A DNA stretch of 64,000 nucleotides, taken from the NCBI GenBank assembly GCA_045535785.1, contig JAZSMH010000064.1, forward strand, positions 5,751-69,750, written 5' to 3'. How positions within the stretch are numbered: the first letter of the stretch is position 1; the number at the start of each line of letters is the position of its first letter. Below the pieces are notes generated by a model that was given only the letters and a program-made list of their open reading frames with translations, had not been told where the DNA came from and made no database searches. This stretch comes from Clostridia bacterium (GTDB lineage: Bacteria > Bacillota > Clostridia > Christensenellales > DTU072). This document shows positions 9,296 through 59,724 of the stretch, one piece after another. The translations under genes were made by a program, and so were the position numbers.

Positions 9296-9412
9296 TAGTA
9301 ACTTTCACGCTAGTGAAAATATCGCTTTGGCATGAGCCAAAATATCACTGCGTCAGCAATATCACTTGCCGTTAGGCAAATATAACAAGTGGCTTAATTG
9401 ACCGAGCCACTT
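9296..9412 (-). repeat. Hairpin mini-array A (GTGATAT-type linkers)
   Basis: Plus-strand linkers ATATCGC, ATATCAC, ATATCAC and ATATAAC (9319, 9342, 9359, 9380) alternate with perfect hairpins TTTCAC-gcta-GTGAAA, TTTGGC-atga-GCCAAA, TGC-gtca-GCA, TTGCC-gtta-GGCAA and AAGTGGCT...AGCCACTT. Confidence 0.85.
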
Positions 9413-9418
9413 ACAATA

Positions 9419-10834
9419 TTAGTCGTCCGCACCTGCTAGTGCTTCGAATTTATCTTTCTTTTGTTCGGGCTTTGAGTCACCGTGTTTTACGAATAACATT
9501 GTTACGAATGCTGCGAGTACGCAAGCGGTTGCGTAGGGGAATAAGGGGGACATATCGCCAACTAGGTCCATTATTACACCCGATAGGACGGGAGTTAGCA
9601 CTTGTGCCGACATGCTTGCCGTATAGTACCAACCCGTGTATCTACCGGTGTTGCCCGATTTTGCAAGTTCTACTACCATGGGGAAAGAGTTTACGTTAAT
9701 GGTTGCCCATGCAATACCTGCTAAAGCGAAGATTAGATACATGAATACGGGGTGGCTTTCCGCCGTCATGAATATTGCAATGAAGAATGCCGTTGCGAGT
9801 AAGCCTACACCGATAAGAATGGTTTTCTTTCTACCCAATTTGCTAGCAAGTAGACCTACGGGAATATAAGCAATTATTGCGCCTGCTTGCGCTATCATTA
9901 GCGTTAAGTCGTAGCTTTGGTGTAGTACGCTGTCTGCGTAAAGTGAATATTTAGACGTGATTGCGTTATATCCCATGAACCATAGAGCAACGGAAGCAAG
10001 AATAAGTAGTAGGGAGGTAAGTTGAGCCTTAGGTAACTTTTCACCCTTGTCTTGTTTTTTGAATTTAATACCCATTCTTGTGAATACGTTTTGCTTTTTA
10101 AGCGTTGTTTCTTGTTCCTCATCTTCAATCGTTGCGTTATCGCTAACTAAGGTTTTTGCATCAACTTCTACAATAACTTCTTCAACGACCTCTTCGGTGA
10201 CTTCTTCGGGGAAGTATTTTAACGTTGCTTCTTCCATATCCTTAACCCACTTAGGTTCTTTAACGGTAAGCAAGAATACGATTAAACCTACTAGCATAAT
10301 TCCGCCTACGCAGATAAAGTAGGTGAAGAAGTTATCCATATGGTCTTGACCGACCTTTACTATCATACCTAGACCGAGTACGAGAAGTCCGCCTGCGGTA
10401 CCCATAAGGTTAATGATAGCGTTACCCTTAGAACGGTGAGGTTTGCAAGTTACGTCGGGCATCAATGCTACTGCAGGTGAACGGAAGGTTGCCATAGAGA
10501 TTAGCGTAACCAAAAGAACTGCAATGAAGAGATATAGATTCTCGATAAGGGGAATAAAAATGAAAGAAAGCACCGCGCAAATAGTACCTATGAAGATAAA
10601 GGGCGTACGTCTTCCGAATTTCGTCTTCGTCTTATCGGATAATCCACCGAATAGGGGAAGTAAGAATACTGCTAGCACGTTATCTAGTGCCATAATGATA
10701 CCCGATTCCGTTTGGCTCATACCGTATTTATAAGTCATAAGCATAGGTATAGCCTTATCGTATGCTTGCCAGAATGCACTGATTAGGAAGAATGCAAAGC
10801 CGACAAGAATTGTTCTCTTTACGTTGATTTTCAT
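9419..10834 (-). CDS. MFS transporter (SLC45/maltose-sucrose permease-like)
   Basis: 'GLSDKTKTKFGRRTPFI' and 'FRSPAVALMPD' motifs; 12 TM helices. Confidence 0.85.
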   Translation of the reverse strand: MKINVKRTILVGFAFFLISAFWQAYDKAIPMLMTYKYGMSQTESGIIMALDNVLAVFLLPLFGGLSDKTKTKFGRRTPFIFIGTICAVLSFIFIPLIENLYLFIAVLLVTLISMATFRSPAVALMPDVTCKPHRSKGNAIINLMGTAGGLLVLGLGMIVKVGQDHMDNFFTYFICVGGIMLVGLIVFLLTVKEPKWVKDMEEATLKYFPEEVTEEVVEEVIVEVDAKTLVSDNATIEDEEQETTLKKQNVFTRMGIKFKKQDKGEKLPKAQLTSLLLILASVALWFMGYNAITSKYSLYADSVLHQSYDLTLMIAQAGAIIAYIPVGLLASKLGRKKTILIGVGLLATAFFIAIFMTAESHPVFMYLIFALAGIAWATINVNSFPMVVELAKSGNTGRYTGWYYTASMSAQVLTPVLSGVIMDLVGDMSPLFPYATACVLAAFVTMLFVKHGDSKPEQKKDKFEALAGADD

Positions 10835-10932
10835 AAAAAACTCCTTGCTTTTAAGTTAAGTCAATAGGTATTCTAACATACAAAGTAAGAATTGTCTATA
10901 CGTGTGCGCGCAAAAAATAACAATTTATTAAC

Positions 10933-10957
10933 AAAAAAGCACGCTGTCGCGTGCTTT
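10933..10957 (-). terminator. Intrinsic terminator of ftsH
   Basis: AAAGCACGC-tgtc-GCGTGCTTT with an A-run on the left (U-tail on the minus strand). Confidence 0.7.
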
Positions 10958-10981
10958 CGTTAGTAATTAACGTTAAATTCG

Positions 10982-13069
10982 TTATTGATTATCGTTTTCG
11001 TCCTTGTTTTCGTCCGTTTGCTCTTCGCCACCGACTTGAACGTTTTGATTGTCATTATTTACGTTGTTATCGTTGTTACCATTATTTTCGTTGTTACCGT
11101 TTTGACCGTTGTTAGGTTGATTAGGTACGATTATGGTAGAAGCAGGAGCAAAAACGGGGGTTACTACTGGAGGAGTGAATTTCTTTGCTTCTTCTTCGAG
11201 TTTAGATTGCTTCTTGTCGATATAAGCGTTGATTTCTTCCACCGATTTACCTTCCATTAGCATATCAACTTCGTCCGAGTAGATAGTTTCTCTATCGAAT
11301 AGAAGTTTTACCATATTGTCGAGCACTTCTCTATGATTGCGTAGACATTCTAGCGCGCGCTCGTAGTTGTATTCGATGATTTTCTTAATTTCTTCGTCGA
11401 TTATAGAAGCAACGTCGTCCGAGTAAGATACTTGCGTTTGATAATCTCTACCGATGAATACCTCTTGATCGCCACCGTAGAATAGGTTAGGAAGTCTATC
11501 ACTCATACCCCATTCGCAAACCATTTTGCGAGCAATACCCGTTGCGCGCTTAATGTCGTTGCTTGCGCCCGTAGATATGTCGCGGATTACGATTTCTTCA
11601 CACGCACGACCACCGAGCATCATTGCAATTTGGTCGTTGAGCTTATTCTTCGTTACGTGGTTGTTGTCATTCTTCGGTCTACTTAGAGTATAACCTGCCG
11701 CCATACCTCTAGGTATGATACTTACTTCTTGTACCGCGTCACAGTATTTCATAAGTTTACCAACGATAGCGTGACCTGCTTCGTGATAAGCAGTGATACG
11801 CTTGTCGCTTTCGGTAATAACTCTCGATTTCTTTTGCGGGCCTGCAATTACCTTGTTGATACCTTCTAGGATATCCTTCATTACGATAACTTTTCTATCA
11901 GCACGGGCTGCTAAGATTGCGGCTTCGTTAAGTAGGTTAGCAATATCCGCACCACTAAATCCGCTAGTCATACGAGCTAAAGTGCGGAAGTCTACTTCGG
12001 AAGAAACGGGCTTGTTGCGAGCGTGTACCTTAAATATTGCTTCTCTTCCCTTAACGTCGGGGATATTGACGTAAATTTGTCTATCAAATCTGCCGGGACG
12101 AAGAAGTGCGGGATCAAGAATATCTGCACGGTTAGTTGCAGCCATTACGATAATACCGTCGTTGGTATCGAAACCGTCCATTTGAACGAGTAGTTGGTTA
12201 AGCGTTTGTTCTCTTTCGTCGTTACCAGCGCCAAGACCGGCACCACGTTGACGACCGACAGCGTCGATTTCGACAATGAAGATAATGCAAGGCATGTTTT
12301 TCTTCGCTTGTGCAAAAAGATCGCGTACTCTGCTTGCGCCGACACCGACGAACATCTCTACGAAGTCACTACCGGAGATAGAGAAGAAGGGCACGTTAGC
12401 TTCGCCTGCCACCGCTTTTGCAAATAGCGTTTTACCCGTTCCGGGAGGGCCTACAAGAAGGACACCGCGCGGTATCTTTGCACCGATTTCGGTGAATTTC
12501 TTGGGATTTTTTAAGAAATCAACGATTTCTTTTAGTTCGGTCTTTTCTTCCTCTGCGCCTGCAACGTCGCTAAATTTAACCTTTACGTTAGAAGCAACTC
12601 TCGGTTTCGTCTTGCCAAAACTGAGCGCACCGCCTTGTCCACCCTTACCACGCATAGAAGCGATTAAGAATATAGCAAGCACCGCGATTATTACGAAGCT
12701 AAGTATGGATACGATTGTAGACCAAGAAGTACCGCTGTTAGGATTGGTAAGAATGATTTTTGGTAAAGCAATATTATGCGCCGAGCAATAGTCGATTACG
12801 TCGTCGGCGAGCGTCCTGCTTACGATAATAACCGTGTATTGCGTTTCTGCAGCCGTACCGTCTTTTAGCGTTACCTTTATTCCGTAAGAATCGGTGAATT
12901 CAATCGTCTGCACTTTGCCTTCTTTAAGGTCGAGCCAAAATTCTTCATACGACTTTTCGGGAGTGCGGTTGAGCGTGCTTATAACGATTGCCGCGGCAAT
13001 AACCAAAACAATGGCTATCGCTATGATAATTATAGTTTTTTTGTTGTTATTAGTAGGCTTATTGTCCAC
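10982..13069 (-). CDS. ftsH: ATP-dependent zinc metalloprotease FtsH
   Basis: Two TM helices, Walker [14 protein letters not shown] pore loop, SRH '[10 protein letters not shown]' and HEAGH. Walker B reads IIFIVEID rather than IIFIDEID. Confidence 0.95.
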
Positions 13070-13178
13070 TTTGTCATCTTCCTTTTATAAACGTTAATTG
13101 TAAAATAGTATACCAAAAGGAGGACGTTTATGCAACGAAAAAATCTCTCAATATATACCATTTGTCGCTAATATTATA

Positions 13179-13906: not shown

Positions 13907-13936
13907 TTGACATTATCGCGCGTGAGGTTGTATAAT
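13907..13936 (+). promoter_or_regulatory. sigma-A promoter
   Basis: TTGACA-18 bp-TATAAT upstream of the CvpA-like gene. Confidence 0.65.
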
Positions 13937-18722: not shown

Positions 18723-21700
18723 ATGAGAGAGTACTTAACTAGACGTTCTTTATGGAAAACAACGCTATTTATGCTAGCGTTAGTATTGGCTATCACGGTG
18801 ATAGCTTCTATTTTTATCGCGCGCCCACATGAGAGCGCCCACGCGAGCGGATACACGTGGAGTCCTAGCGTTCGCTACAAGGACGGCGAAAGATTCGTTA
18901 CTCTTACCGATAGATCGGCGCTTACAGGCGACGTTCTTGGTGCTAGTGGCGAACTTTACTATTTTATCGAGCCCACCGACGATAACGAGCTCGATCCCAA
19001 CAACAGCTTCCATTACGTAAAGTCTTCTAACTATCTCTCTCAAGAACAACTTTACGCACTTCCTAACAGTAGCTGGACCTTGCTCGACAAGAGTACCGCT
19101 ATCCCCACCGACGATGGCAAAGGCTTCTACGTTACCGAAAGCGGTTTTAACGGCGCTTCCGACAACTATTTCTATTTCCGCCGTACCTATACCGTTAACG
19201 AAGGCGGTATACCCACCTCTTATTACGAATATTCACCTTACCGTCCTTACGTAAGAATTAATACCGCTATCAGCGAGAGCGATATAGGCGTGTATGCTGT
19301 AAAAGCACAATTCTTGCGCGGTAACAGCTACGTTGACTATACGGGTAGCTGGCTTTCTGGCGCTTTACGTATCACCGTCACCACCGTTTATATGAACGCT
19401 TATTCGGTAAGTTATAGCGGTAGCATAGAGCACGTATCGTATTCTATCGACGGCGGTAAGAACTATATTCCCGCTAGCAACAACGTTATAGAAATAAAAG
19501 ACGTTGCACTCACCAATCAAGATATACGCATTATGGTGGAGGACGTAGGCAGGACTATCAAGAGCGAGCCCTACGTTTACGGTACGCACGTGGGCGAAAG
19601 CAAAGTCAACATGGATCCCACCGTACCTAATTTTAGCGTATCCGCCACCACCACTAGCGTAACCGGTGAGAAGGTAGACTATACGAGCAACACCTGGACT
19701 AGCGAAGCTGTAAAATTCACACTCACTAACGAAAGCGCTTGTAATAGTAAGATTACGTATTATTATTCCACCGACGGTAGCGACTACGTTCCTATGGATT
19801 CCAAAGAATTGGTTATCCAGACCTCTCGCTCTTCAGTTAGATTCAGAGCGGAGAACGAATCGGGACTTATCTATAACTTCGGTACCAACTACGTAGTAAG
19901 GATCGATGGCAGACAGCCCAACGTAAACCTTACCGCAACCACCCCCGAGCCCGACGCAGGCGATGAGAACGTGGTTAAGAATTTGAGCATAACCCAAGGC
20001 GACGGTGGACTTTTGAAAGCAGGCTACGCCAACGGCAAAATCACCGTTTACGTATACAATAGAGATTTGTTAGGTAACGTAATAAATAACGAGAGTGGAA
20101 CGGTATTCTATTATCAATCGCGTTCAGCTAACGGTCAATACAGTAACTCTTGGACGAGAATGACGTCGTTAATGAGTGGCAGTAGCGAAACTTGCTACAC
20201 GATAAGCGATTCTACCACTAAGGACATAAGCATTACTAAGTATTACAAATTTAAGATCGTCAGTAACGCAGGACTAGAAAGTAGCGAGGTAGAGATGACC
20301 TTCACCCTTTTGAAGGCTTCTTACGTAATCGATATAGACAAGATTGACGCATCCGTCAACAGCTCGGGCTGGATAGCAGACAAAGCGGTAGTAAGCATGA
20401 TTATACCTACCGATAGCAAATTAAGCGAGGGCAGTTATAGCATTCCTACCACCTCTTATACCTTCTACTACGTACCCACCGACGGCACGGGTGACGAATT
20501 CGGCGTAAGCGGTAGACCGATTAAGTTCTATGAAGAATTAGACGGAGTTATCTATTGGATTTACGAATTCGACCTAGTCGCATCCGCGCACAGTACCTTC
20601 TATATCTACACGCGTAACGCTGCAGGCAAGAAGAGTGCTAACACGGTAGAAACCACCGAGAAGATTGCTATCGACGTATTAGAACCCGTGTACGAGATGA
20701 CCGCGTACGTGCTCCCTATCGAACAAGGCATTGACAAAGAAGATTACGTTTATCTCGACGTGCTCGATCCCGGTTGGGTTAACGGCTCCATCGTCCTCAC
20801 CGTCAAAGTAAAGGTAGGTGTCAGCGGAGTTTATCTAAAAGATATGGTCTATGCAAAGGATAGCAACGGCAACATCCTTACCGACACCGTAACCGGACAA
20901 ATCGTATGGCAAGAAAAGGGCACCGCGAGAGTACCTGACGAAATCATCATCGAGAACGAAATAGAGTATTACTATTACTACGTCACCATTAACCTTGACG
21001 ACAACACCATGCGCGTCATGAGTAGAGATACCAAGTTCCGTATTTATACGGGTAGCGGAATTTATAAAGAAATATCTTTCACCGCCAACATTGACACCAC
21101 CGACACGATAAGACTTAGCGAGGTTGACTTCGTAAGCGGTGAGAAGCAAATCGACGTAGCAGTAAGCGACGCTAACGGCGTAATCAACATGAACGAGTAC
21201 GATTTCTTAGTTTGCGAAGACGTAAATCTTACCTTTAGTAGTAGTCTAGACAGCGCGGAATTCGAGAATCACTACAACGTATATTACAGCCTATTCGACG
21301 GCGCGGGAATAGCCGACCTATTGACGTTCGCTTCCAATATATACGACTATGAGCTCGTAGGTGACGGCGGTATCAACGTAGATATCGAGAATGGCAAAAA
21401 AGGCACCGTTTATATCGCAATATATCTAGAAAATAAGGCGCAAGACTACAAGGGCGAAAAGAAACAATCTGGTTACTACGTAATCACCATTGAATACGAT
21501 ACCGTTAATTTGATTATCGGTTACGATATCGGTGCGTTCATGGTAGAAGGCGAGAATATTACCGACGTAAGTGAAGATATGGAAGGCGGTAGCTGGGTAA
21601 GCGGATATTTAGAAATCACCTTGAGCATCTATATCAACACCGAGGGCGACGTAAAAGCTGACGAAAGCTATACCTTCTATTATATGCAAATCGACGGCAA

Positions 21701-24700
21701 CGTAGTTAATATAAAGGACGCAGTCGCCAAAGGAACATGGATAGAAGCGTCCAACGGCTATTATACTTTGGACGGACAATACGTATTTAATATTAACTTC
21801 GTTGAAGATAGCTTCTACGGAAGACTTGCTTTCTCCGTCCGTAACGGCGCAGGATATCGCAACGTTCAAGACGCAAGCAGTGCGAAGATTATCCGTATCG
21901 ACAACACCGTACCCGACGTAGACGAAGCTATTATATATCAACCGCACGCAGACGGTAACCGTGAGGGTGTAAGAGCAGAAAAGGGCACCATATCCGTTGG
22001 CGGAACGGCAACGCAGGTTAACGTTCTTACGTATTACAGCACGGAAGAAATCTCTTTGCAGGGCGTAGTAGACAGTAACCGTTCTAATATTCATTACTAC
22101 TATAAATATCTAGCTACGGTAGACCAGGTGTCGTACAAACTTAGTGAATTAGATCAATTAAGTCAAGCAATTGATTTGTTTAGTGATATAGAAGGCGCAC
22201 AACCCTTGACCGATAACGAATACCGCGTAGTTTATTACGCAATATATGCAGTTAACTCGGTAGGTGCAGAGGCTGACGGCGCACAAGTCACCGACAGTGC
22301 CACCAACACTGTTACTTTTGACACCGTCTACTGCTTCGTATACGACAGCAACTCTCTTGACGGCGATATGAAGGCTGACGAAAGCAAGGGCTATTATAGC
22401 GAGCAGTTGAAGATGTGGTCTTACGAATGGGTAGATAGCGTAACTATCAACCTTACCGCAAGAGGTACCAACGTTTCGGCACAAGATAATTATTTGAGCT
22501 ACGAATTCAGCGTAGACGGCGGTAACAATTGGTTCGTTTATCTAGACGCAGGCGTTCAATATTGGTACGCTGCTAACGATACCGTAGGACTATATTTCAA
22601 CGCCGAGGTACTCAAAGAGTACGTTGATAAGGACGGCAATCACCCCTTTACTACAGGCGTTATGTCTGCATTCTTGTTTAGAGCAATTAACAAAGCAGGT
22701 ACGATCATGGTAATGGATAGCGTTTATATTGCTATTGACGAAACCGTTCCTGAATTTGAAATAAAGGCGGTAGACCACCTCGGTATAAACTACACAGGTG
22801 GCAGTACGGAAAGCTTATCTAGTGGCGACGAAGTATGGAAGAGTGGTCCTATAACGGTTACCATTGATATCAGCACTATGCCTACGGGCGGTGTAATCAC
22901 CACGTATTACCTCGCTTATATCGAGAACGGCAATACCGTTTATACTCGTGAAGACGGTAGCGTAGGTAAAGTTCTCAATACTCTCACCTTCACTACCGAT
23001 ATGTTAGACGGCTTCAACAAGAACCGCGACGCTATTCTTTACGTAACGGTAACGAGTAGAGCTAATTCTAACTTGTTCATGGAGAAAGCAATAAGACTTA
23101 GTGTAGACCAAGTAGTTCCCGAATTTAGCCTATTAGGACACGCGTCTAACGACGAATCTGACGCTACCCAAACTATCGTAAGCGGACAATGGACGAACCG
23201 TAACACCGTAAGCATAAGCAAAGCGGAAAAACAAGAAGGGCAGAACGTAAGTGAAGTTGTTTATACGTACACGTATAAAGATAGCACGTCTACGGGTGTA
23301 ACCGAATTCACTTGGGCTAACGAAGAGGGTAACATCACTCGTTCTAACTCTTGCGAAATCGTAGTCACCGCTACTACGGAATCAGGACTTACCTACACGC
23401 AACCTTTCATTATCAATATCGACACCGTTGCACCGAAGATTAAGTTCGACGGCAATATCAACGTAATAGAGGATCAAGAATACTACATCGACTTGAAGGT
23501 ATTCGTAGAAGAAGCTAACATTGAGATTTGCGAATACATAACCATCAAGGGCGACACGCGCGGATTTGCATTCGATCCCACCGGCTATATTTTGAGCACG
23601 AGTAGCGTAGATAACTCTATTAGATACGATAATTTAGGTAACGAATATCGTGGCTACGTAAAAGTCTACGTAAAAGACTACGCAGGCAACGAGGACACCT
23701 TCGTATTATATATCTTGCCGTTTAAGCTAACGGTAAACAACATTACGCTTAGCGACGAGGACCTAGCACAGGTAGACGAGTACGCAGCAGTACTTGCTAA
23801 GGCAAGAACGTATATGGAAAGTAGCCGTGTGGCTTACTTTGAGAATCTTATCAGCAGACTTAACGATAGAATCAATACGTTGAACAAAGAAATCACCGGC
23901 TATCAAGATTATCTAGAAAAATTAGCTAATCGTAGCAGTTTCGAATTGCGTAGCGACTATGCAGAAATGTTCGACTATCTAGAAACCTTCAACGACTACG
24001 AAGTATACGGACAAGGCTGGATACAGGACGCTATCACAGGCGACTCTACGAGCAAGTATTACGCATATTATCAGAACTTCTTAACGCAATTCGGTAAGTT
24101 AAAAGCTCTTATGGATAAAGTTGAGAAGGTAGAAACCAACGTAATAGCTCTTCCTGCTATCAACATGGTAGAAAGAGAAGACTACGAAGACATTTTGCGT
24201 ACCTACGACGAATATAAGGATCTTACTATGGATCAAAAGGCTTGCTTTACCGCTAACCTATATAACAAGCTAATGGAACTCAAAGAGTCCTGCGAGGTAC
24301 TACTACTCACCGATGGAGAATCGGGCGTTGCTATCGACGGTGACTTTGCACCGGGCGCAACCATAAGCGTAACGACTTACGATTCTAGCACCGATACCTT
24401 TACCAATGCACAAAGTTTGCTAGCTAATACCGTATCGGAGAATCAACCGCGTACCATCGTTTCTATTAGAAGAATAGCCCTCGACGGAGCATATTCGCAA
24501 ACGGTTGCAAGCGATATGGTAGTTACCTTCCCCATTCCTGAAGAATACCGCAACTACATCTACTTCGCTGTATACGAATTGAGCGACGACGGCTCTATGA
24601 AAGTGATAGAGGATACGGAAATTCAACCCGACGGCGAAAGCGTAGTATTTAGCACCGAGAAACTCGCTACTTACGTGCTATGTATCAAGGCGGAGATGGA

Positions 24701-24935
24701 AGCAACGGATACCTCGGAGAATACCTACGGTACTATAATGGGTATACAACTTGACGCAAAGATGATTAAGTACCTTATCTACGTAGGCATCGCGCTATTC
24801 GGCGTAGTAATATTGATAGTAATTATCCTAGGTATTAGACATCGTAGATTCCTCAACAGCTATAACAAGGCATACCGTCATTCGTTGTATCGTAAGGGCG
24901 TAAAGGGTATCCCTAAAGGCAACAAGAGATATTAA
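18723..24935 (+). CDS. Giant surface protein (2070 aa): signal peptide, tandem Ig-like beta domains, helical region, C-terminal TM anchor
   Basis: Signal ends 'AHA'. Recurrent 'W...V...YS.DG...N.AG...ID...P' units; C-terminal TM followed by a basic tail. Confidence 0.8.
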   Translation: MREYLTRRSLWKTTLFMLALVLAITVIASIFIARPHESAHASGYTWSPSVRYKDGERFVTLTDRSALTGDVLGASGELYYFIEPTDDNELDPNNSFHYVKSSNYLSQEQLYALPNSSWTLLDKSTAIPTDDGKGFYVTESGFNGASDNYFYFRRTYTVNEGGIPTSYYEYSPYRPYVRINTAISESDIGVYAVKAQFLRGNSYVDYTGSWLSGALRITVTTVYMNAYSVSYSGSIEHVSYSIDGGKNYIPASNNVIEIKDVALTNQDIRIMVEDVGRTIKSEPYVYGTHVGESKVNMDPTVPNFSVSATTTSVTGEKVDYTSNTWTSEAVKFTLTNESACNSKITYYYSTDGSDYVPMDSKELVIQTSRSSVRFRAENESGLIYNFGTNYVVRIDGRQPNVNLTATTPEPDAGDENVVKNLSITQGDGGLLKAGYANGKITVYVYNRDLLGNVINNESGTVFYYQSRSANGQYSNSWTRMTSLMSGSSETCYTISDSTTKDISITKYYKFKIVSNAGLESSEVEMTFTLLKASYVIDIDKIDASVNSSGWIADKAVVSMIIPTDSKLSEGSYSIPTTSYTFYYVPTDGTGDEFGVSGRPIKFYEELDGVIYWIYEFDLVASAHSTFYIYTRNAAGKKSANTVETTEKIAIDVLEPVYEMTAYVLPIEQGIDKEDYVYLDVLDPGWVNGSIVLTVKVKVGVSGVYLKDMVYAKDSNGNILTDTVTGQIVWQEKGTARVPDEIIIENEIEYYYYYVTINLDDNTMRVMSRDTKFRIYTGSGIYKEISFTANIDTTDTIRLSEVDFVSGEKQIDVAVSDANGVINMNEYDFLVCEDVNLTFSSSLDSAEFENHYNVYYSLFDGAGIADLLTFASNIYDYELVGDGGINVDIENGKKGTVYIAIYLENKAQDYKGEKKQSGYYVITIEYDTVNLIIGYDIGAFMVEGENITDVSEDMEGGSWVSGYLEITLSIYINTEGDVKADESYTFYYMQIDGNVVNIKDAVAKGTWIEASNGYYTLDGQYVFNINFVEDSFYGRLAFSVRNGAGYRNVQDASSAKIIRIDNTVPDVDEAIIYQPHADGNREGVRAEKGTISVGGTATQVNVLTYYSTEEISLQGVVDSNRSNIHYYYKYLATVDQVSYKLSELDQLSQAIDLFSDIEGAQPLTDNEYRVVYYAIYAVNSVGAEADGAQVTDSATNTVTFDTVYCFVYDSNSLDGDMKADESKGYYSEQLKMWSYEWVDSVTINLTARGTNVSAQDNYLSYEFSVDGGNNWFVYLDAGVQYWYAANDTVGLYFNAEVLKEYVDKDGNHPFTTGVMSAFLFRAINKAGTIMVMDSVYIAIDETVPEFEIKAVDHLGINYTGGSTESLSSGDEVWKSGPITVTIDISTMPTGGVITTYYLAYIENGNTVYTREDGSVGKVLNTLTFTTDMLDGFNKNRDAILYVTVTSRANSNLFMEKAIRLSVDQVVPEFSLLGHASNDESDATQTIVSGQWTNRNTVSISKAEKQEGQNVSEVVYTYTYKDSTSTGVTEFTWANEEGNITRSNSCEIVVTATTESGLTYTQPFIINIDTVAPKIKFDGNINVIEDQEYYIDLKVFVEEANIEICEYITIKGDTRGFAFDPTGYILSTSSVDNSIRYDNLGNEYRGYVKVYVKDYAGNEDTFVLYILPFKLTVNNITLSDEDLAQVDEYAAVLAKARTYMESSRVAYFENLISRLNDRINTLNKEITGYQDYLEKLANRSSFELRSDYAEMFDYLETFNDYEVYGQGWIQDAITGDSTSKYYAYYQNFLTQFGKLKALMDKVEKVETNVIALPAINMVEREDYEDILRTYDEYKDLTMDQKACFTANLYNKLMELKESCEVLLLTDGESGVAIDGDFAPGATISVTTYDSSTDTFTNAQSLLANTVSENQPRTIVSIRRIALDGAYSQTVASDMVVTFPIPEEYRNYIYFAVYELSDDGSMKVIEDTEIQPDGESVVFSTEKLATYVLCIKAEMEATDTSENTYGTIMGIQLDAKMIKYLIYVGIALFGVVILIVIILGIRHRRFLNSYNKAYRHSLYRKGVKGIPKGNKRY

Positions 24936-24946: not shown

Positions 24947-26128
24947 ATGTGTTTTTTATTCGGTAGAAAAAAGCTTCTCGCTAAGCAAGAGGAGTTATTA
25001 AGAAGAACGGAAGAATTAGAAAAAGAACTTGCGTTCACGCGTGAAAGTATAGGTCAACTTATCAGTACTACGGTGGTTACTTCCAACAACACCCTTCTTG
25101 ACGGAGTCAAGAATACTTTGCAAGCAGTCACCGACAACGTAAACAATACCCTCAAGAATAACGAGGTGCGTATTGCCGAGGTTAAGTCCGACCTAAATAG
25201 AAATCTCGCGGAAATTAGAGCGGATAACGAGAAGCGCCTTACGGAAATGCGCCAAGTTGTGGAAGAAAAACTAACCTCTACCATCAACGAAAGATTGAGT
25301 CAAACTTTCGTTACCATTAACGAAAGACTTGATGCAGTTAACAAGGGCTTAGGTGAAATGCAAAGCCTAACCACGGGCGTAACCGACTTAAAGAAAATTC
25401 TCGGTAACGTAAGGACGCGTGGGACTTTCGGCGAAATAAGTCTTTCTAACCTTCTTTCGAACATTCTCACGACCGAACAATACAAAGAGCAGTACAAGTT
25501 AAAAACGCGCGCTAACGATTTACACGATAGGAAGGTGGACTTCGTTATACTTTTACCCGGCGAAAATAAAGACGAAAAAGTACTTTTACCCATCGATGCA
25601 AAATTCCCTATGGAAGACTACCAAAGACTCGTTGCCGCATCGGAAGCAGGCGATCAAATTGCTACGCAAGAATCGGTAAAAGCCCTCGAAAACGCGGTAA
25701 AACAACAAGCAAAATCAATAAAAGAAAAATACATCGTTCCCCCGCAAACGGTGGACTTTGCGATAATGTATTTACCCATAGAAGGGCTCTATGCGGAAGT
25801 TGCACGCAACGCGGGATTGCTTGAAGAATTGCGCGCAAAATACAAAGTTATACCCGCAGGCCCCACCACTATTGCCGCGCTACTTAACAGCCTACAAATC
25901 GGTTTTAAGACGCTTGCAGTGCAGAAGTCGAGCAAAGAGATTTATGAACTTCTCGTCAAATTTAAGGGCGATTTCGTAACCTTTATAGGCAATATAGAAA
26001 AGGCGCAAACTCAAGTGGGACAAATCGGCAAAACTCTCGAAGACGCAACCAAACGTACCGCTATGATGATGAAAAAAATCGAGAAAGTAGAAGGGCTTGC
26101 ACCACCCGTACCAAGTATAGAAAATTGA
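24947..26128 (+). CDS. rmuC: DNA recombination protein RmuC
   Basis: Coiled coil, 'TRGTFGE', 'LPIDAKFPMEDY' and 'FAIMYLPIEGLYAE' motifs. Confidence 0.92.
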   Translation: MCFLFGRKKLLAKQEELLRRTEELEKELAFTRESIGQLISTTVVTSNNTLLDGVKNTLQAVTDNVNNTLKNNEVRIAEVKSDLNRNLAEIRADNEKRLTEMRQVVEEKLTSTINERLSQTFVTINERLDAVNKGLGEMQSLTTGVTDLKKILGNVRTRGTFGEISLSNLLSNILTTEQYKEQYKLKTRANDLHDRKVDFVILLPGENKDEKVLLPIDAKFPMEDYQRLVAASEAGDQIATQESVKALENAVKQQAKSIKEKYIVPPQTVDFAIMYLPIEGLYAEVARNAGLLEELRAKYKVIPAGPTTIAALLNSLQIGFKTLAVQKSSKEIYELLVKFKGDFVTFIGNIEKAQTQVGQIGKTLEDATKRTAMMMKKIEKVEGLAPPVPSIEN

Positions 26129-26129
26129 T

Positions 26130-26159
26130 AAAAAAGACGTACCGTTGTACGTCTTTTTT
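26130..26159 (+). terminator. Intrinsic terminator of rmuC
   Basis: AAAAAAGACGTAC-cgtt-GTACGTCTTTTTT. Confidence 0.8.
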
Positions 26160-26279
26160 AATGATGTAGTTGCCTAAAAGTCAACAATGATGTAATTTCG
26201 CATTCGCTCATAATGATGTTTTTCACTTCGTTCAAAATGACGTATTGTCCTGTCGGACAAAATTATGGATAAAAATTAT
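26160..26279 (+). repeat. Hairpin mini-array B (ATGATGT-type linkers)
   Basis: ATGATGT at 26161, 26187 and 26213, ATGACGT at 26237 (24-26 nt period). End motif AATTATGGATAAAAATTAT at 26261-26279. Confidence 0.85.
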
Positions 26280-26563: not shown

Positions 26564-26668
26564 ATAATTTTATCCGTAATTTTTGCGCAAGCAAATACAT
26601 CATTACGAGCGTATGCGAAGTAGCATCACGTTGTCATAGACAACGCATCATTAGCGCAGCGGCATCAT
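26564..26668 (-). repeat. Hairpin mini-array C (inverted partner of B)
   Basis: Plus-strand ACATCAT, GCATCAC, GCATCAT and GCATCAT (26597, 26623, 26645, 26662). Hairpins TTTGC-gcaa-GCAAA and GTTGTC-ata-GACAAC. End motif ATAATTTTATCCGTAATT. Confidence 0.85.
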
Positions 26669-26680: not shown

Positions 26681-26714
26681 AAAAACCACCGAATTGCTCG
26701 GTGGCTTATTTTTT
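26681..26714. terminator. Intrinsic terminator of the leftward lipoprotein gene
   Basis: A-run, CCACCGA-attgc-TCGGTGG, then a T-rich tract. Confidence 0.6.
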
Positions 26715-26800: not shown

Positions 26801-28309
26801 TTAATGGTTGTGACCTGCGTGATCGTCTTCGCTATCGGTAGTAGCTTCACCGATAAGGGTGAGTAGATCGTCTTCACTTATGATACCTAGGATTTTGCCT
26901 TTGGTGATATCGGTATCAGCGGTGATGGTGTCAAGCGCGGGGATTACGTAGTAGTATGCGTTATCTTCCATATCGTCGTTTAGGTAATAGATTACGTTGC
27001 CGATGATATCGTAAGTTACGTAAGAAGAATTGTATACGCCCTTGAAGAAATCAATCTTGTTTTCGTCTGCGTAAGCGTAGGTAACGATACTGCCTTCGGT
27101 AGTCTTATTGAAGAGCTTGATATAGCAGAAAGTGCTGTTTGCGATATAGTTGATATAAACTTCGCTAGCGGTTTCTACAACGTCGATTACGGTGATAGAA
27201 TCTGCGCCGAAGTCGAAAGATAGATATTTGCTTTCTTCTACTGCATCGTAAGAAGCTTTTTCTACCCTGCTACCATTTTGGAATACGTCGATAGCCTTGC
27301 CGGAGAAAGCGAGCACGTAGCCGTTATCTAAGGTATAGAAAGCGGAGTAGGTGGTGGTAGAAGTTTCGTAAGAGTATCTCAATTCTTTGGTAGCATCGTA
27401 AGCAAGGTCTGCACCGAAGGTGTAAGAATAGAAACCGTCGTTAGCACCGTTTTGGGTATTGTCGTCTTTCTTATAGAATAGCGTTAGCTTGTCGCCGTCG
27501 ATAGCAACGGAAGTAACGGTAGTGGTATAAAGAATATCTCTATCGGTGTCACCGTTGTAGATGTCACTGCTTAGTACCGCCTTTAATTGACCGTTAACTA
27601 GGTTGTATACGTATACGATATAGTCGGTGCTATAGTTAGCAGCGTCTGCATAGTTGTAAGTAGTGAAGACAGCGTAGTCGCCTACGAAAGTATAAGCAAC
27701 TGCGGTGACGTCTTCTTTACTTTCAGCGGTAGACTTAGTAAGAGTGGTGATAGCTAAGGTTTCGCTATTGATAGAGTATAGGTAGTTATCGTATGCGTAA
27801 ACTAGATACTTAGAATTGTCACCTGCGTACAACTTGATATCGTTATCGTCAAGTTCTTTGATAGTTTCGGTAACGCTACCGTCAACCTTGGTACGGCAAA
27901 GAACGCCTTGGTTTGACTTGTAGTTAAGCTCGCTATCTTTGTCAACGCTAGTGGTGTTGTAGTAGATATAATCGCCTACGATATAAAGTCCACCGTAAGT
28001 GGTATCTTCGCCGAATACGTTCTTAGGTACGATAGTGGTAACCGTAGTGTAATCGGGAGTACCGTTCTTAAGGGTAACTCTACAAATAGAACCGCGTACT
28101 ACTTCGCCAAAGGTGTTGTCTGCAGTTTCGCCTGCAAAACCGTTGACAAAATATACGTAGTCGCCATAACTAACCGCCATACCGCCGTTGTCACTTACGT
28201 CACCAGCTACGGTAGGAATTGCTTTTTGTTCGGTGTTTTCTCCACAAGCAGCTAGTACACAGCAGAGGAGAATTGCACAAACGATTGTAAAAATGATTTT
28301 CTTTTTCAT
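26801..28309 (-). CDS. Lipoprotein, probable beta-propeller (DUF5050-like), His-rich C-terminus
   Basis: Lipobox 'VLAAC', 'NGGMAVSYGDYVYFVNG' and 'GDYIYY' blade-like repeats; ends DDHAGHNH. Confidence 0.7.
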   Translation of the reverse strand: MKKKIIFTIVCAILLCCVLAACGENTEQKAIPTVAGDVSDNGGMAVSYGDYVYFVNGFAGETADNTFGEVVRGSICRVTLKNGTPDYTTVTTIVPKNVFGEDTTYGGLYIVGDYIYYNTTSVDKDSELNYKSNQGVLCRTKVDGSVTETIKELDDNDIKLYAGDNSKYLVYAYDNYLYSINSETLAITTLTKSTAESKEDVTAVAYTFVGDYAVFTTYNYADAANYSTDYIVYVYNLVNGQLKAVLSSDIYNGDTDRDILYTTTVTSVAIDGDKLTLFYKKDDNTQNGANDGFYSYTFGADLAYDATKELRYSYETSTTTYSAFYTLDNGYVLAFSGKAIDVFQNGSRVEKASYDAVEESKYLSFDFGADSITVIDVVETASEVYINYIANSTFCYIKLFNKTTEGSIVTYAYADENKIDFFKGVYNSSYVTYDIIGNVIYYLNDDMEDNAYYYVIPALDTITADTDITKGKILGIISEDDLLTLIGEATTDSEDDHAGHNH

Positions 28310-39319: not shown

Positions 39320-40222
39320 ATGGACAGTTCTTTGTTAGTTTTTAAAGCAATAGACGTATTGCTAAAAAAGGCGGAAAATTCCGTAGAGTACCCTTCCGTT
39401 ACTACCGAAGAAGTTAGTTACGATAGTAGGTTCTTAAGGACGAAAGCGGATATAAAATACGTCGGTGAGAAGGGGAAATTACGCCCCGTAGTTTTTTACG
39501 TACCGGGCGGTGGTTTCGTAGCAGGCGGTAAGCAGTACCGTAGCGAAATAACGGGCTTTTTTGCAAGCAAAGGGTACGCGGTATTTTGTGCTAATTTACG
39601 CACCGCGCCCGAATTTCCCTTCCCTACGCCGTTAGAAGATTTAGTCACCGCGCTTAATTTTTTATACGATAATAGTAACGAGTACGGTTTTGATATCGAC
39701 AACGTGATTTTTGCAGGCGATAGTTCGGGTGGGTATTTTGCTTCTTACGCCGTTGCGCTTGCTACGCACCCAACGTTAAGAGAAGAACTCAATTTGCCCG
39801 AACTAAAAGTTAAACCCCGTGCGCTCATTTTCTTATCGGGAGTAGCGGACGTTGTAAAAATGGTAAAATTAAGAGATCCACTTATGATTGCACGCAACAC
39901 GGGTAGGCATTTTCTTAATTACAAACTTAAATGGGGTGCAACTAACGCAAAAGACTATCAGTTTTATAAATATCTTTCACCAGCTAATTTTGTCACCAAT
40001 AATTGGTGTCCCACCTTCCTTTCTTATTCAAAAAAAGACCTATTTTGCGGTGGACAAGGGGAAATTCTAGACGAAAAATTGACGCAATTTGCGATAGAAG
40101 AACGTAAGCACGTAGCAACGCGCCTACTTGATAATCACTGCTATATTTTGTTCAGTAAGAAGAAGAAAGCACGCGAAGCGCAAGAATTACTTGCTGAATT
40201 TTTGTTAAAATTTAGCAAGTGA
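39320..40222 (+). CDS. HSL-family esterase/lipase (alpha/beta hydrolase)
   Basis: 'PGGGF' oxyanion motif, 'APEFPFP' and GDSSGG. Confidence 0.85.
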   Translation: MDSSLLVFKAIDVLLKKAENSVEYPSVTTEEVSYDSRFLRTKADIKYVGEKGKLRPVVFYVPGGGFVAGGKQYRSEITGFFASKGYAVFCANLRTAPEFPFPTPLEDLVTALNFLYDNSNEYGFDIDNVIFAGDSSGGYFASYAVALATHPTLREELNLPELKVKPRALIFLSGVADVVKMVKLRDPLMIARNTGRHFLNYKLKWGATNAKDYQFYKYLSPANFVTNNWCPTFLSYSKKDLFCGGQGEILDEKLTQFAIEERKHVATRLLDNHCYILFSKKKKAREAQELLAEFLLKFSK

Positions 40223-40315
40223 AATGATGTCGCTACGCTGATGATGATACTCAGCATTCGCTTGTAATGATGCCACTGCGTTAATGATGCCGCTACGCTA
40301 ATTGTGGATAAAAAT
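40219..40315 (+). repeat. Hairpin mini-array E (ATGATGY-type linkers)
   Basis: ATGATG(T/A/C/C) at 40224, 40241, 40267 and 40284. Spacers CGCTACGCT (twice) and CTCAGCATTCGCTTGT. End motif AATTGTGGATAAAAAT. Confidence 0.8.
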
Positions 40316-40342
40316 ATATGTAGAAAGTAGCGTTTAATTTTG

Positions 40343-40371
40343 TTGACATAGTTCCCTTATATTTATATAAT
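40343..40371 (+). promoter_or_regulatory. Consensus sigma-A promoter of ispE (probably leaderless mRNA)
   Basis: TTGACA-17 bp-TATAAT, ending 6 nt before ATG 40378. Confidence 0.75.
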
Positions 40372-53066: not shown

Positions 53067-53069
53067 ATA

Positions 53070-56632: not shown

Positions 56633-56684
56633 TTTGCAAAATTTACAATTTTCACAAAAAATAACAAAAATATAAAAAATAAAG

Positions 56685-57008
56685 TTAGCGATTTTCGCTA
56701 ACTTTTTCTATAAACTTAATTAGATAAAATTTTTCATCTTCTGACAGTTTTTCGAAGGAGTTGAGTATAGATAATTCTTTCGTATTTATACTATTTTCTA
56801 CGTTAACGATGCCCAAATCGTCCGAATTACCTACAATATAGTCAATTGACACGTTAAAAAGTGCCGAAAGCGCTATTAGTTGCTCTATAGATGGTTGCGT
56901 GCGCGAATTTTCCCAATTGTTATACGTTCCTTGACTTACGTTAAGGATAGAAGCAATCGCCCTTTGCGACAATTTCTTTTCCATACGTAGTTCATATAAT
57001 CTAATCAT
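56685..57008 (-). CDS. XRE-family HTH repressor
   Basis: 'LRMEKKLSQRAIASILNVSQGTYNNWEN...FNVSIDYIVG'. Start moved to ATG 57008 after GAGGTG. Confidence 0.9.
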   Translation of the reverse strand: MIRLYELRMEKKLSQRAIASILNVSQGTYNNWENSRTQPSIEQLIALSALFNVSIDYIVGNSDDLGIVNVENSINTKELSILNSFEKLSEDEKFYLIKFIEKVSENR

Positions 57009-57066
57009 TTTCCGCACCTCTTCTCTTTTTTATACCCATATTGTATAAGAATTCTAATCATTTGTA

Positions 57067-57095
57067 TTGACTTATTAAATAATCTAATCTATAAT
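57067..57095 (+). promoter_or_regulatory. sigma-A promoter of the MACPF gene
   Basis: TTGACT-17 bp-TATAAT with a CTAATC box abutting the -10. Confidence 0.7.
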
Positions 57096-57157
57096 TTATA
57101 ATATAATTAAAAAACTTAATCAAATAATTAAAAACATAAAAAATGGAGGAAGTACAA

Positions 57158-59428
57158 ATGAAAAAAACGGCAAGAATACTAATAATATTCGTAATTCTTT
57201 GTTTTGTATTCGCGTTTGTGGGATGTTCGCAGGTGAAAACTACACTCGCTGTCCCAGAGAACGTTCAAGTAATAGACAACGTCGTTCATTGGAATATGGT
57301 TGACGGAGCGGTTGGCTATTATTTGACAATTAATACCGTTGGACATGAGGTTGCAAAAGAAAAAGGAACGCATTTTGATTTAAAGAATGCTAATATTCCA
57401 TCGGGAACACAATGCGAAATATCTGTTAGAGCGGTTGGTGATGGTTATGTAAATTTAAGCTCTGGATATTCTGAACCGATATTCCACCTTTATATCGCTA
57501 ACGAAACGAACGATAACAATAATTCGGGCAACAACAATACTGGTAATAATGATAACACAAATACTGGTAACAACAACAATAATAACGGTGGTAGTAATAC
57601 TGGCAACAATAATACTGGGAATAACACGCCCGATAGTGGGACAAACGATGATAATAACACCGATAATAACGACAATAATCAAACGGTGCAACCTAAGCCT
57701 GTTACGTTCAAGTCGGCTTATTATGATTTAGGAATCGGCAGAACGGTTAATGCGATTACTGACGAATATTTAGAAGTTGATAACTATCATACGAATTTAT
57801 TTACAGAAGAAGTATTAAGCACGTTGACGTGGGCAGAAACTAAAAAAGGTAAAATGGAATCTAAATCATCTTCCGCATCTACAATGGAGGAATTGTATAG
57901 TGGAAAGAAAGAAGAATATGGTGGTGGATTCGAAATTTCTGGCGGTTGGGGAGTGTTTACAGCTGGAGTAGAATTGAAGTTTGATAATGCTACCAATGAA
58001 AAGTGGAGCAAAGTAACGAACGAATTCTATTATGATTTCAGTCAGTATTATACAGCATATTACGTTTCAATTGCAGAAAGAAACAATATAGATAAATTAA
58101 GAGCATTAATGCAACAATCAGTACTTAACGATGTAACTAATTTATCAGCAGAAGATTTTTTTGATAAATACGGAACACATGCTATATTGGCGGCAGATAT
58201 TGGTGGTAAAGTAGAAGGAAGTTTTTATATGGTAAACACCAGTGATTCATACTGGGAAGAAGAGTATGGTGCGATATCAACAGGTGTTAGTGCTGGTATA
58301 AAAGATATAATGGAAGCCAAAGTTTCGGCATATAACAAAGTTACTGATACGTTTGAGAATAATCTTTCAGAAGCAACACAGTATTTTCAAGCGAGCGGTA
58401 TAGGCGGAGCTAATTTCCCCGCGATTACACTAGATGATTTTTTGGCGAATTATAAAACGTGGGCAGAATCTATGAATGGTATAGATATTGAAGAATGCGT
58501 AATAATTGGTGCTTCACAAAAAAATAGCCTTGTTCCAATTTGGGAGTTATTACCTTCAGAATATAGTGCTGAAAAGAATAAACTAAAAAATTATTTTGAC
58601 GATTTGGCAAAGAATAACCAAAGCGACTTTTATGCAAAATACACAAAAGTACAAAATGAAACCAATGACGAAAATTTTGCTAGTGGTTTTGGGGTAGCGA
58701 ATAAACCTTACTTAATAAAAGATCCTAAGCAGTTTACTTACATGTTTAATAACTCAAAGAGTGAATGTTATTATGAATTAATCGGTGATATAAATTTAGG
58801 TGATTGGTCACAATACGGAATTAGCAATTGGAAATCTGAATCAAGAAATCCATTAGTTTACTTTACAGGTAACTTTGATGGAAAAGAGAATACGATCACG
58901 TATGATATTAAGATTGGTAAAGCAACCCTTGAATCTTGGGCTTTAGGCTTATTCCCAACAACAAATAATGCTACGATAAAAAATTTAAAAGTAGTAGCGA
59001 ACATAAAAACGTTTGATCCTCAAAACAGAAACGAAAAATGGGATATACCTGGCGGGGATATGGCGCAGGATGCCATGGTAGGAGGAATAGTGGGATATGC
59101 TAGAGAAACGGAAATTATAAATTGTTCATCGTCAGGGAATATAAGATATAATGTTGCTAGTAGTGGCAGTGATACTTGTGTTGCTGGAATAGTAGGATAT
59201 GCGCTTTCTTGCGATGTAATAAACTGTTCTAGTGCAGCAACAATTTACGCGAGAGGTAGGTGGGTTTCTATATCAGGTGTTATTGCATGCTGTTACAAGA
59301 CAAGTTATAGCAATTTATTCTCAACGGCTACGTTATCAGCAGACGTAAACTTGGAGTGGCCTTTGGGTGGCATAAGCAGACACGATACTATAGCGCAGGG
59401 TAATAAGGAGATACTAACACAAGATTAA
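57158..59428 (+). CDS. MACPF-domain lipoprotein (FN3-like domain, Asn-rich linker, MACPF, GLUG-like beta-helix)
   Basis: Lipobox 'FVGC'; MACPF-type signature FFDKYGTH-AILAADI-GG (about 58169-58207); 'SGFGVANKPYLI' and 'VGGIVG' repeats. Start moved to ATG 57158 after GGAGG. Confidence 0.8.
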   Translation: MKKTARILIIFVILCFVFAFVGCSQVKTTLAVPENVQVIDNVVHWNMVDGAVGYYLTINTVGHEVAKEKGTHFDLKNANIPSGTQCEISVRAVGDGYVNLSSGYSEPIFHLYIANETNDNNNSGNNNTGNNDNTNTGNNNNNNGGSNTGNNNTGNNTPDSGTNDDNNTDNNDNNQTVQPKPVTFKSAYYDLGIGRTVNAITDEYLEVDNYHTNLFTEEVLSTLTWAETKKGKMESKSSSASTMEELYSGKKEEYGGGFEISGGWGVFTAGVELKFDNATNEKWSKVTNEFYYDFSQYYTAYYVSIAERNNIDKLRALMQQSVLNDVTNLSAEDFFDKYGTHAILAADIGGKVEGSFYMVNTSDSYWEEEYGAISTGVSAGIKDIMEAKVSAYNKVTDTFENNLSEATQYFQASGIGGANFPAITLDDFLANYKTWAESMNGIDIEECVIIGASQKNSLVPIWELLPSEYSAEKNKLKNYFDDLAKNNQSDFYAKYTKVQNETNDENFASGFGVANKPYLIKDPKQFTYMFNNSKSECYYELIGDINLGDWSQYGISNWKSESRNPLVYFTGNFDGKENTITYDIKIGKATLESWALGLFPTTNNATIKNLKVVANIKTFDPQNRNEKWDIPGGDMAQDAMVGGIVGYARETEIINCSSSGNIRYNVASSGSDTCVAGIVGYALSCDVINCSSAATIYARGRWVSISGVIACCYKTSYSNLFSTATLSADVNLEWPLGGISRHDTIAQGNKEILTQD

Positions 59429-59464
59429 AAAAGTTGTTAAGAACATCTAGATTAGACCATTAAT

Positions 59465-59548
59465 ATGTTTACATGTTCAAGAAATAATGAAACTTATTGC
59501 TGGGTTTACTCTAGTGGAAGTTTGCCGAAGTTATATTGGGAAAAATAG
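59465..59548 (+). pseudogene. Orphan C-terminal remnant of a GLUG-type protein
   Basis: MFTCSRNNETYCWVYSSGSLPKLYWEK* lies in frame with the MACPF gene but beyond three stop codons. Confidence 0.4.
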
Positions 59549-59596
59549 TTAATAAAGCTTTTTAGGGTGCCTAATTTAACAATTTAATTACCTAAA

Positions 59597-59636
59597 ATAA
59601 AAATAACGGATACGTAATTGTATCCGTTATTTTATT
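59597..59636. terminator. Bidirectional terminator
   Basis: AAAATAACGGATAC-gtaatt-GTATCCGTTATTTT. Confidence 0.75.
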
Positions 59637-59724
59637 ATCCATAACTTTGCCTAAAGGCAAAATTTCACTCACGAAGTGAATTTCACCACAAAGTGATTTC
59701 ACCTGCCGTTACGGCAGATTTCAC
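59635..59724 (-). repeat. Hairpin mini-array D (GTGAAAT-type linkers)
   Basis: Plus-strand ATTTCAC at 59662, 59680, 59696 and 59718 between hairpins TTTGCC-taaa-GGCAAA, TCAC-gaa-GTGA, CAC-aaa-GTG and CTGCCG-tta-CGGCAG. End motif TTATCCATAAC. Confidence 0.87.

Follow-up and report, generated by a model that had tools for sequence, protein, structure and literature searches.

A stretch of 64,000 nucleotides (nt) from a Clostridia bacterium (assembly GCA_045535785.1, contig JAZSMH010000064.1, positions 5,751 to 69,750; the whole of it is called the window below) carries five arrays of small hairpins, A to E, which probably belong to a modular, polar, non-coding repeat family proliferating in intergenic DNA, with the Rfam motif Gut-1 (RF01706) as its GTGAAAT branch and with a mode of spread that we infer to act through the constant linker and by fold-back copying. 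The build of the family is n × [constant linker of 7-9 nt + mini-hairpin of 9-21 nt], closed by the motif RTTRNGGAYA and an AT-rich run. The source assembly (2.16 Mb in 71 contigs, 39.5% G+C, 96.4% complete) holds at least 73 such arrays that fall into seven or more linker subfamilies. The family behaves as fast-turnover intergenic DNA, with a lifestyle like that of repetitive extragenic palindromes (REP) and bacterial interspersed mosaic elements (BIME) or of BOX elements, and not as a set of conserved single-copy RNA genes; linker subfamilies bloom in single species, and from one strain to another units change their order, appear, disappear or give way to others.

The five arrays had been delimited by a first-pass annotation made from the sequence of the window, and all of them are where it placed them (Table 1, in which the strand of an array is, by convention, the one that carries the RTGAWRY linker). 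Pattern counts in the 64-kb window were compared with 100 dinucleotide-preserving shuffles each. ATGATG repeated three times with gaps of 10-22 nt matches three times, once in B and twice in E, against 0.00 expected, and GTGAWAT repeated three times matches twice, both times in D, against 0.00 expected. The sequence TTRNGGATAA occurs eight times, a number that no shuffle attains (1.95 expected), and B, C, E and D each end in one of these eight matches, in the form (A/G)TT(R)NGGATAA; the end of array A had been called degenerate and is so. The five arrays are thus confirmed as lying far beyond chance, and neither the Gut-1 search nor the ATGATG and GTGAWAT pattern tests yielded a sixth one in the window.

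Array D is a Gut-1 RNA in the sense of Rfam: the scan of the window gave 61.3 bits, against a gathering score of 50 bits, for positions 59657-59726 of the minus strand, which cover model positions 1-77 and hence the whole model, whose consensus reads ‘UGAAAU-hairpin’ three times. Array A scores 32 bits (E 2e-4 genome-wide; contig C29:15064-15138, minus strand, equal to window 9314-9388), which is below the cut-off and makes it a weak relative. Arrays B and C have no RF01706 match at E up to 10, and E is absent among the 51 matches listed for the genome, 13 of which exceed the cut-off and 39 of which have E <1e-3. With ATGATGY as their linker, B, C and E form an uncatalogued branch that is built like D and shares its end motif. 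It had been noted beforehand that a match to a described family would take away the novelty of the arrays; such a match exists for D and weakly for A, and B, C and E have none. In those parts of the original description that concern it, Gut-1 is a probable non-coding RNA found in human-gut metagenomes only, with no function assigned (Weinberg et al., 2010, PMC2864571). A full-text literature search for Gut-1 returned only that paper and a structure-prediction benchmark of 2026.

Further copies, which the first-pass annotation had proposed to look for, are abundant. Chains of at least three linkers number 185 in the genome against 69 in a reversed-sequence control, and chains of at least four number 76 against 4; the set kept for analysis comprises 73 arrays and is a lower bound for the genome. 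At least three identical linkers are present in 62 of the 73 (ATGATGT 21, GTGAAGT 18, GTGAAAT 7, GCGATAT 7, ATGATGC 4, ATGAAAT 3 and ATGATAT 2), which agrees with the claim of a linker that is uniform inside each array and changes from one array to the next. Their polarity, proposed from five of them, is confirmed as well, and the end motif common to them can be written more generally as RTTRNGGAYA with an AT-rich run behind it. Mixed-linker arrays occur, in which for example GCGATAT gives way to GTGAAGT or ATGATGT has GTGAAAT at its end, and different subfamilies stand in tandem or head-to-head with their end motifs 3-12 nt apart. Because of the common end motif, the mixed-linker arrays and these clusters, we regard the subfamilies as one family. 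The modularity is most evident in the ATGATGY subfamilies, where 29 arrays contain 99 units, ten stem types account for 73% of the units and 27 different orders are found; the arrays thus arrange a limited set of stems in varying succession.

Two possible roles of the end motif were considered and rejected. As an outward promoter only the end of B matches, and weakly (TGGATA-17-TATTAT, 9/12), the promoter at E lies beyond the array, and most of the motifs point to the 3′ end of a converging gene; a general promoter role was therefore rejected. The GTGG variant, which E has, reads as the DnaA-box consensus on the other strand, but the two central positions vary freely (ATGG, AAGG, ACGG, GCGG and others), and this reading was rejected for that reason.

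The spacers between linkers are predominantly hairpins whose structure is kept while the sequence varies. Among 165 unique spacers, 44% fold at ≤-3 kcal/mol, compared with 2.9% of shuffles, and in the 21 Gut-1-type arrays of the genome that were aligned, 12 of the 19 predicted pairs have changed on both sides, so that the covariation sought in the stems is present. In 69 unique ATGATGY spacers the second base pairs with the penultimate one in 100% of cases, using four pair types (46% with shuffled partners), and deeper pairs are formed in 70-81% against 40-53% in shuffles. Together with the census, these pairing tests bear out the claim of a single dispersed family with conserved structure. 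Two details of the earlier description had to be amended: the first base of the spacer is left out of the stem, which gives the linker an effective length of 8-9 nt instead of 7 nt, and not every spacer is a hairpin, 13 of the 69 being recurrent non-hairpin spacers, including the CGCTACGCTA and AACTTCGC...GCTCGTA types found in E, C and B, which account for the weak hairpins of array E. The stems are nearly pure Watson-Crick, with 13 internal non-Watson-Crick pairs in 107 stems.

The loops distinguish the two strands. When the 97 spacers with a perfect stem of at least four pairs are read on the linker-complementary strand, GNA accounts for 20 of 44 triloops and GNNA for 23 of 36 tetraloops, 12 of which are GNRA; the linker strand of the same hairpins has zero GNA or GNNA loops of these sizes and zero UNCG loops. 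Unusual stability is a property of GNA loops with a C:G closing pair in DNA and of GNRA loops in RNA, so the asymmetry speaks for a single-stranded form of one particular strand, the one opposite to that of the Rfam model. This asymmetry towards the non-Rfam strand is new, as are the palindromes made from gene ends that are described below.

The distribution of the arrays is that of a proliferating repeat. One element of ~135 nt, in which GCGATAT leads to GTGAAGT, has at least eight near-identical copies with sharp edges and unique flanks; it breaks the assembly, since several copies lie at contig ends, and neither a target duplication nor a clear terminal inverted repeat was seen at it. The ATGATGT triple pattern has 35 hits in the genome (0 for the backwards-pattern control), and 60 relatives have 2, 1 and 1, followed by 57 zeros; its members in the window are B and, as mixtures with ATGATGC, C and E. 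RF01706 itself is patchy: it occurs in 13 of 60 relatives, among them 10 of the 27 that belong to the genus, and, across a sample of the class, in 27 of 150 genomes and 18 of 107 genera, with 1-55 copies per genome. A genome of another family (G054, 1.3 Mb) has 55 Gut-1 matches in total, which at C33:572-896, C33:1617-1772 and C3:9978-10162 of that genome overlap in long runs and thus form much longer unbroken arrays. None of 13 congeners has an array after the orthologue of the gene upstream of D, a plain terminator being found there instead. The RmuC-family gene beside B and the 502-aa gene beside C are found together in only one congener, G013, where the RmuC gene is separated from its converging neighbour by 166 nt with one terminator; the same interval in the source genome is 672 nt long and holds B, an XRE-type gene and C.

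Turnover is also visible between close strains, represented here by contigs X1, X2 and X3 of three public gut-metagenome runs from different studies, with ~98.5% identity to the source over flanking genes. In X1 and X3 the region of array E (40230-40337, 108 nt) is replaced by 70 other letters, and X2 has array E with extra letters that include one more ATGATGC. Strain X1 keeps B and carries 1,389 letters in place of 50 nt just past its end motif; in addition, window positions 26123-26153 (31 nt, the RmuC terminator) are replaced by 94 other letters, hence the 5′ border of B is strain-variable as well. Many copies with unique flanks, a lineage-specific copy number and replacement between strains, all hallmarks of a repeat lifestyle, are therefore found together.

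The arrays avoid genes and favour the ends of them. Although open reading frames (ORFs), called crudely at a length of at least 100 aa, make up 88% of the genome, 70 of the 73 arrays are intergenic; the contexts are convergent (23), tandem and co-oriented (17), tandem and anti-oriented (16), divergent (1) or contig end (13). Of the 45 arrays preceded by a co-oriented ORF, 25 have their first linker no more than 46 nt from the stop codon of that ORF, and a downstream ORF lies within 46 nt of the last linker in one case out of 64. Arrays begin directly after an intrinsic terminator in 10 of 73 cases, compared with 0.9% of random positions. Both arrangements occur in the window. B and C stand just after bidirectional terminators, and A and D between a stop codon and a terminator: A, whose first hairpin is at 9387-9412, between the stop (9419) of a major facilitator superfamily (MFS) transporter gene and the terminator, and D in a position defined by the intrinsic terminator at 59600-59633 downstream of it. 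Array E begins at the stop codon of an esterase gene and ends just short of a consensus promoter. The genes whose stop codons lie so close to an array include ordinary ones of the window, such as those for the MFS transporter, the esterase and an F420-ligase-like protein.

At array D the attachment to a gene end takes a peculiar form. The first hairpin of D is a palindrome that joins the two (Table 1): the F420-ligase-like gene provides one arm with its last codons and the loop with its stop codon, and the opposite arm directly borders the first linker. Perfect hairpins of at least 10 bp that reach into a coding sequence are found at only 12 of 1,427 ORFs genome-wide; five of these 12, that of D included, directly abut a linker and two more lie within 35 nt of an array (three of the array-linked cases were flagged by script, and four were recognised by reading the printed output and the array listing). 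It is possible that the array-forming process copies neighbouring sequence in inverted orientation at these junction palindromes.

A mechanism can be proposed on this basis. The constant linker would be the means of spread and reshuffling, its common 7-9 nt serving as the place of recombination or of template switching. Near-perfect palindromes, those at gene junctions among them, would be made and kept by intrastrand fold-back template switching or by an equivalent copying process, and selection on each stem need not be the sole cause of their perfection. A strand-specific single-stranded form would matter to the process, as the occurrence of GNA and GNNA loops only on the linker-complementary strand suggests.

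Several points weigh against this repeat reading. Template switching is a step that we infer, and the searches for Y1, TnpB, reverse transcriptase and tyrosine recombinase genes identified no dedicated mobilising enzyme. An exact pair of empty and filled alleles with defined ends or a target duplication was obtained neither from the congeners, which are ~65-70% identical, nor from a scan of metagenome contigs for close strains, where the best RmuC relative is 63% identical. A wobble test for a preferred strand gave four G.T against four A.C pairs and favours neither. No junction palindrome was found at 21 arrays of the genomes G054, G012 and G029, a small sample in which many loci are cut by contig ends; such palindromes may therefore be rare, and they remain a lead. 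They may also be pre-existing terminator-like hairpins beside which the arrays settle. Finally, A and D stand after a stop codon and before a terminator, which, together with the tight polarity relative to co-oriented gene ends, would also fit an RNA role in the 3′ untranslated region (3′-UTR).

That RNA role, which is how Rfam and the authors of Gut-1 read the motif, is a possible but less likely explanation. The arrays would be transcribed as 3′-UTR extensions or small RNAs of a multi-copy RNA family, in which the single-stranded linkers would bind or sponge an oligomeric RNA-binding protein, or the stack of hairpins would protect the 3′ end of the mRNA. The Rfam match with its covariation, the position of A and D and the 25 of 45 arrays that begin within 46 nt of a co-oriented stop all speak for it; furthermore, B and C have an AT-rich end-motif side with a bidirectional terminator opposite, and these could frame a complementary-strand transcript of ~150 nt with GNRA-type loops. 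However, none of the 13 orthologous sites has an array, the ATGATGT branch is essentially private to one species, tandem contexts are evenly divided between co-oriented and anti-oriented arrays (17 against 16), 10 of 73 arrays begin after a terminator, and a G.U excess is absent on both strands. In addition, linkers differ between subfamilies of one genome, which a single protein partner fails to explain. The one RNA run considered (X20) gave only short contigs elsewhere in the stretch and none over B, C or E, and is uninformative. The RNA reading overlaps with the repeat reading and is compatible with it, and an RNA role, as 3′-UTR element or small RNA, may coexist with proliferation as a repeat.

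The first-pass annotation had favoured a system of gene capture or shuffling, and a version of this idea, in which arrays or their end motifs border small cassettes with XRE or IVP genes that are moved by a putative trans-acting, structure-recognising factor, most arrays being empty or solo, seems to us unlikely. Arrays B and C do flank, with facing end motifs, a 72-aa XRE gene absent from G013, strain X1 has its 1,389 extra bases between the end motif of B and that gene, and three XRE-type helix-turn-helix (HTH) genes begin 8-19 nt past an end motif, among them the one in the window, whose ATG is 19 nt past the end motif of C. Most of the 73 arrays have no small cassette-type gene beyond their end motif, though: an XRE-type ORF begins within ~20 nt of it at only 3 of them, and most arrays flank ordinary genes. 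The supposed link to variable genes is accordingly retained in a weak and local sense, for the extra B-XRE-C segment relative to G013, the X1 insertion and the three XRE genes, and is not extended to most arrays.

The other candidate cargo is the 23S_rRNA_IVP gene (an Avd-like four-helix bundle, PF05635; IVP below), of which there are four in the genome and none in the window. Two of the four have a forward-plus-reverse pair of census arrays directly upstream (GTGAAGT in one case, ATGAAAT in the other), and a third has array-like ATGTAAT/ATTACAT repeats there, read by eye. A hidden Markov model made from no more than four proteins was used to scan 120 loci with three GTGAAAT linkers in other genomes, and 9 of these loci have an IVP ORF within 400 nt (2 of 21 inverted pairs, 7 of the 99 remaining loci); the other inverted pairs have no plausible outgoing gene. 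The tie to IVP genes is thus enriched and far from constant, since it concerns a minority of arrays, and IVP is the only recurrent protein partner. Two IVP cassettes bounded by repeats of tRNA 3′ ends also favour a cassette system, but these repeats are not array sequence, and no recombinase is linked to the arrays. The genome has four tyrosine recombinase genes (PF00589; C26:178905, C46:16600, C25:117021 and C65:25848), none in the window and none directly beside an array; that on C65 is ~2.5 kb from the array C65:23213-23331, and that on C46 is ~4.7 kb from an IVP cassette.

The IVP loci merit a description of their own. The PF05635 genes C29:98849-99136 and C46:11605-11919 lie in mini-cassettes of 676 and 736 nt after tRNA-Leu(CAA) and tRNA-Val(GAC), respectively, closed by an exact 21- or 18-nt repeat of the tRNA 3′ end as in integrative islands; there is no integrase inside either cassette. 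A third cassette, on the overlapping contigs C3:1-553 and C4:12437-12895, lies behind the tmRNA gene: a terminator comes first, then an ATGAAAT array pair, the IVP gene and a tRNA-like 3′ end. In the fourth (C20:14710-15253), a GTGAAGT array pair separates the IVP gene from a tRNA_U5-meth_tr (rlmD/rumA-like) gene upstream. At C38:81850-82000 and C42:3180-3330, beyond inverted GTGAAGT array pairs that lack an IVP gene, the two loci have in common a conserved non-coding stretch of ~150 nt, consisting of a long hairpin and then a ‘...ggcttagccc...gatgctcgcacttag...’ segment, which matched no Rfam family.

A bolder combination of these elements strikes us as improbable. Here the arrays would dock oligomeric Avd-like IVP proteins, with a single subunit on each of the 4-5 repeated linkers and with linker types that correspond to IVP paralogues, and would be part of a mobile system that has no recombinase; IVP and XRE cassettes would sit at the 3′ ends of RNA and protein genes, solo arrays would have been multiplied by fold-back, and the strand with the GNA/GNRA loops would be the functional one. 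If this were true, cassettes would settle at tRNA, tmRNA and rlmD-like genes and at terminators, and fold-back copying would also write the end of the neighbouring gene into a palindrome.

Weakest of all is the analogy with REP/REPIN or IS200/IS605 elements processed by the HUH enzymes RAYT or TnpA on single-stranded DNA hairpins, which the first-pass annotation had drawn and which we consider extremely improbable: the arrays are indeed high-copy intergenic hairpins with a short conserved flank and with GNA-type loops on one strand only, but the 96.4%-complete genome has no match to Y1_Tnp/RAYT (PF01797), which was matched in 6 of 14 control genomes, no TnpB-type domain (PF07282) and no reverse transcriptase gene, and the unit is a string of three to six different mini-hairpins, not a REP palindrome or an inverted REP pair.

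Table 1. Arrays and adjoining features of the window (window positions; for arrays, strand of the RTGAWRY linker).
Feature	Position	Strand	Description
Bidirectional intrinsic terminator	9257-9291	.	next after array A on the minus strand
Array A	9296-9412	-	GTGATAT/GATAT linkers, 4 small hairpins, degenerate end motif GTTACTAAAAT
Bidirectional intrinsic terminator of RmuC-family gene	26129-26160	.	array B begins right after the T run
Array B	26160-26279	+	4 units, ATGATGT linkers (last ATGACGT), end motif ATTATGGATAA
XRE-type HTH gene, 72 aa	26333-26551	-	HTH_3, 3.5e-15; flanked by the facing end motifs of B and C
Array C	26564-26668	-	4 units, ATGATGC/T linkers, end motif ATTACGGATAA
Intrinsic terminator of 502-aa gene	26683-26707	.	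array C begins ~10 nt after the T run
502-aa gene upstream of array C	26801-28309	-	
Array E	40219-40315	+	ATGATGY linkers, weak hairpins, end motif ATTGTGGATAA; strain-polymorphic
Promoter-like consensus site of GHMP-kinase gene	40343-40371	+	TTGACA-17-TATAAT; just past array E
Intrinsic terminator downstream of array D	59600-59633	-	
Array D	59635-59724	-	four GTGAAAT linkers, 4 hairpins, end motif GTTATGGATAA
Junction palindrome at array D	59725-59763	-	15-bp perfect stem

Three other features of the window may be mentioned. Array D adjoins a gene for a MACPF and GLUG protein of 761 aa (57143-59428, plus strand), which lies in the 56-60 kb stretch, the one with the lowest G+C of the window (0.36, against ~0.42 elsewhere). 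A T-box leader (126.9 bits; 699-950, plus strand) stands upstream of a sodium:solute symporter family gene (1072-2742, plus strand), and the transporter is therefore expected to be under tRNA-sensing control. An ORF of 2,070 aa (18723-24935, plus strand) has no Pfam match at E up to 1e-5.

If the repeat reading is right, Gut-1, an orphan RNA motif since 2010, would be the visible tip of a large modular repeat family, and its annotation should be changed from that of a single RNA gene to that of a repeat family. A repeat family of gut Clostridia that breaks assemblies, differs between near-identical strains and has private linker types offers strain markers for uncultured gut bacteria. The strand-asymmetric loops, the polar end motif, the attachment to gene 3′ ends, the junction palindromes and the occasional IVP or XRE neighbour provide handles on the mechanism.

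The arrays share some properties with several known systems. The attC site of integrons, which is recognised by structure rather than by sequence, consists of a single long imperfect palindrome that IntI recombines beside attI. Two arrays likewise bracket a small gene in the window, and a short conserved motif stands at the polar end; however, no integrase is linked to the arrays, which consist of multiple independent mini-hairpins and mostly have no cassette, and the analogy with attC that had been drawn for them does not hold, there being no integrase beside them and their anatomy not being that of attC. The Avd-like IVP genes would be a predicted partner, to judge by the arrays upstream of two of the four and the array-like repeats at a third, although the window has none and only a minority of arrays elsewhere is near one (9 of 120 loci, 2 of 21 inverted pairs).

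REP, BIME and REPIN sequences of proteobacteria are high-copy intergenic palindromes located after genes, often clustered, in both orientations and variable between strains. The arrays resemble them in each of these respects, yet here there is no RAYT gene, several unrelated mini-hairpins are set on a linker of 7-9 nt, and the end motif is polar. BOX elements of Streptococcus pneumoniae, for which a mobilising enzyme is not known, are modular, intergenic and non-coding, with a variable number of internal units of ~45 nt. Compared by description only, the arrays are similar to them in modularity, variable unit number, intergenic placement and want of coding capacity, and different in that their units measure 16-28 nt and that the stems vary while the linker is constant. 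The closest relative is Gut-1 itself, which likewise has at least three short hairpins joined by GUGAAAU and comes from gut bacteria, and whose whole model is fitted by array D. In the portions of the published account that treat it, Gut-1 is a probable non-coding RNA of the human gut, whereas here it is one branch of a family that, in a single genome, numbers at least 73 copies with seven or more types of linker; the polar end motif, the strain-level turnover and the species-specific blooms go beyond what those portions describe. The Gut-1 model fails to detect B, C and E, and it models one strand of a structure whose loops, in the arrays analysed here, favour the opposite one.

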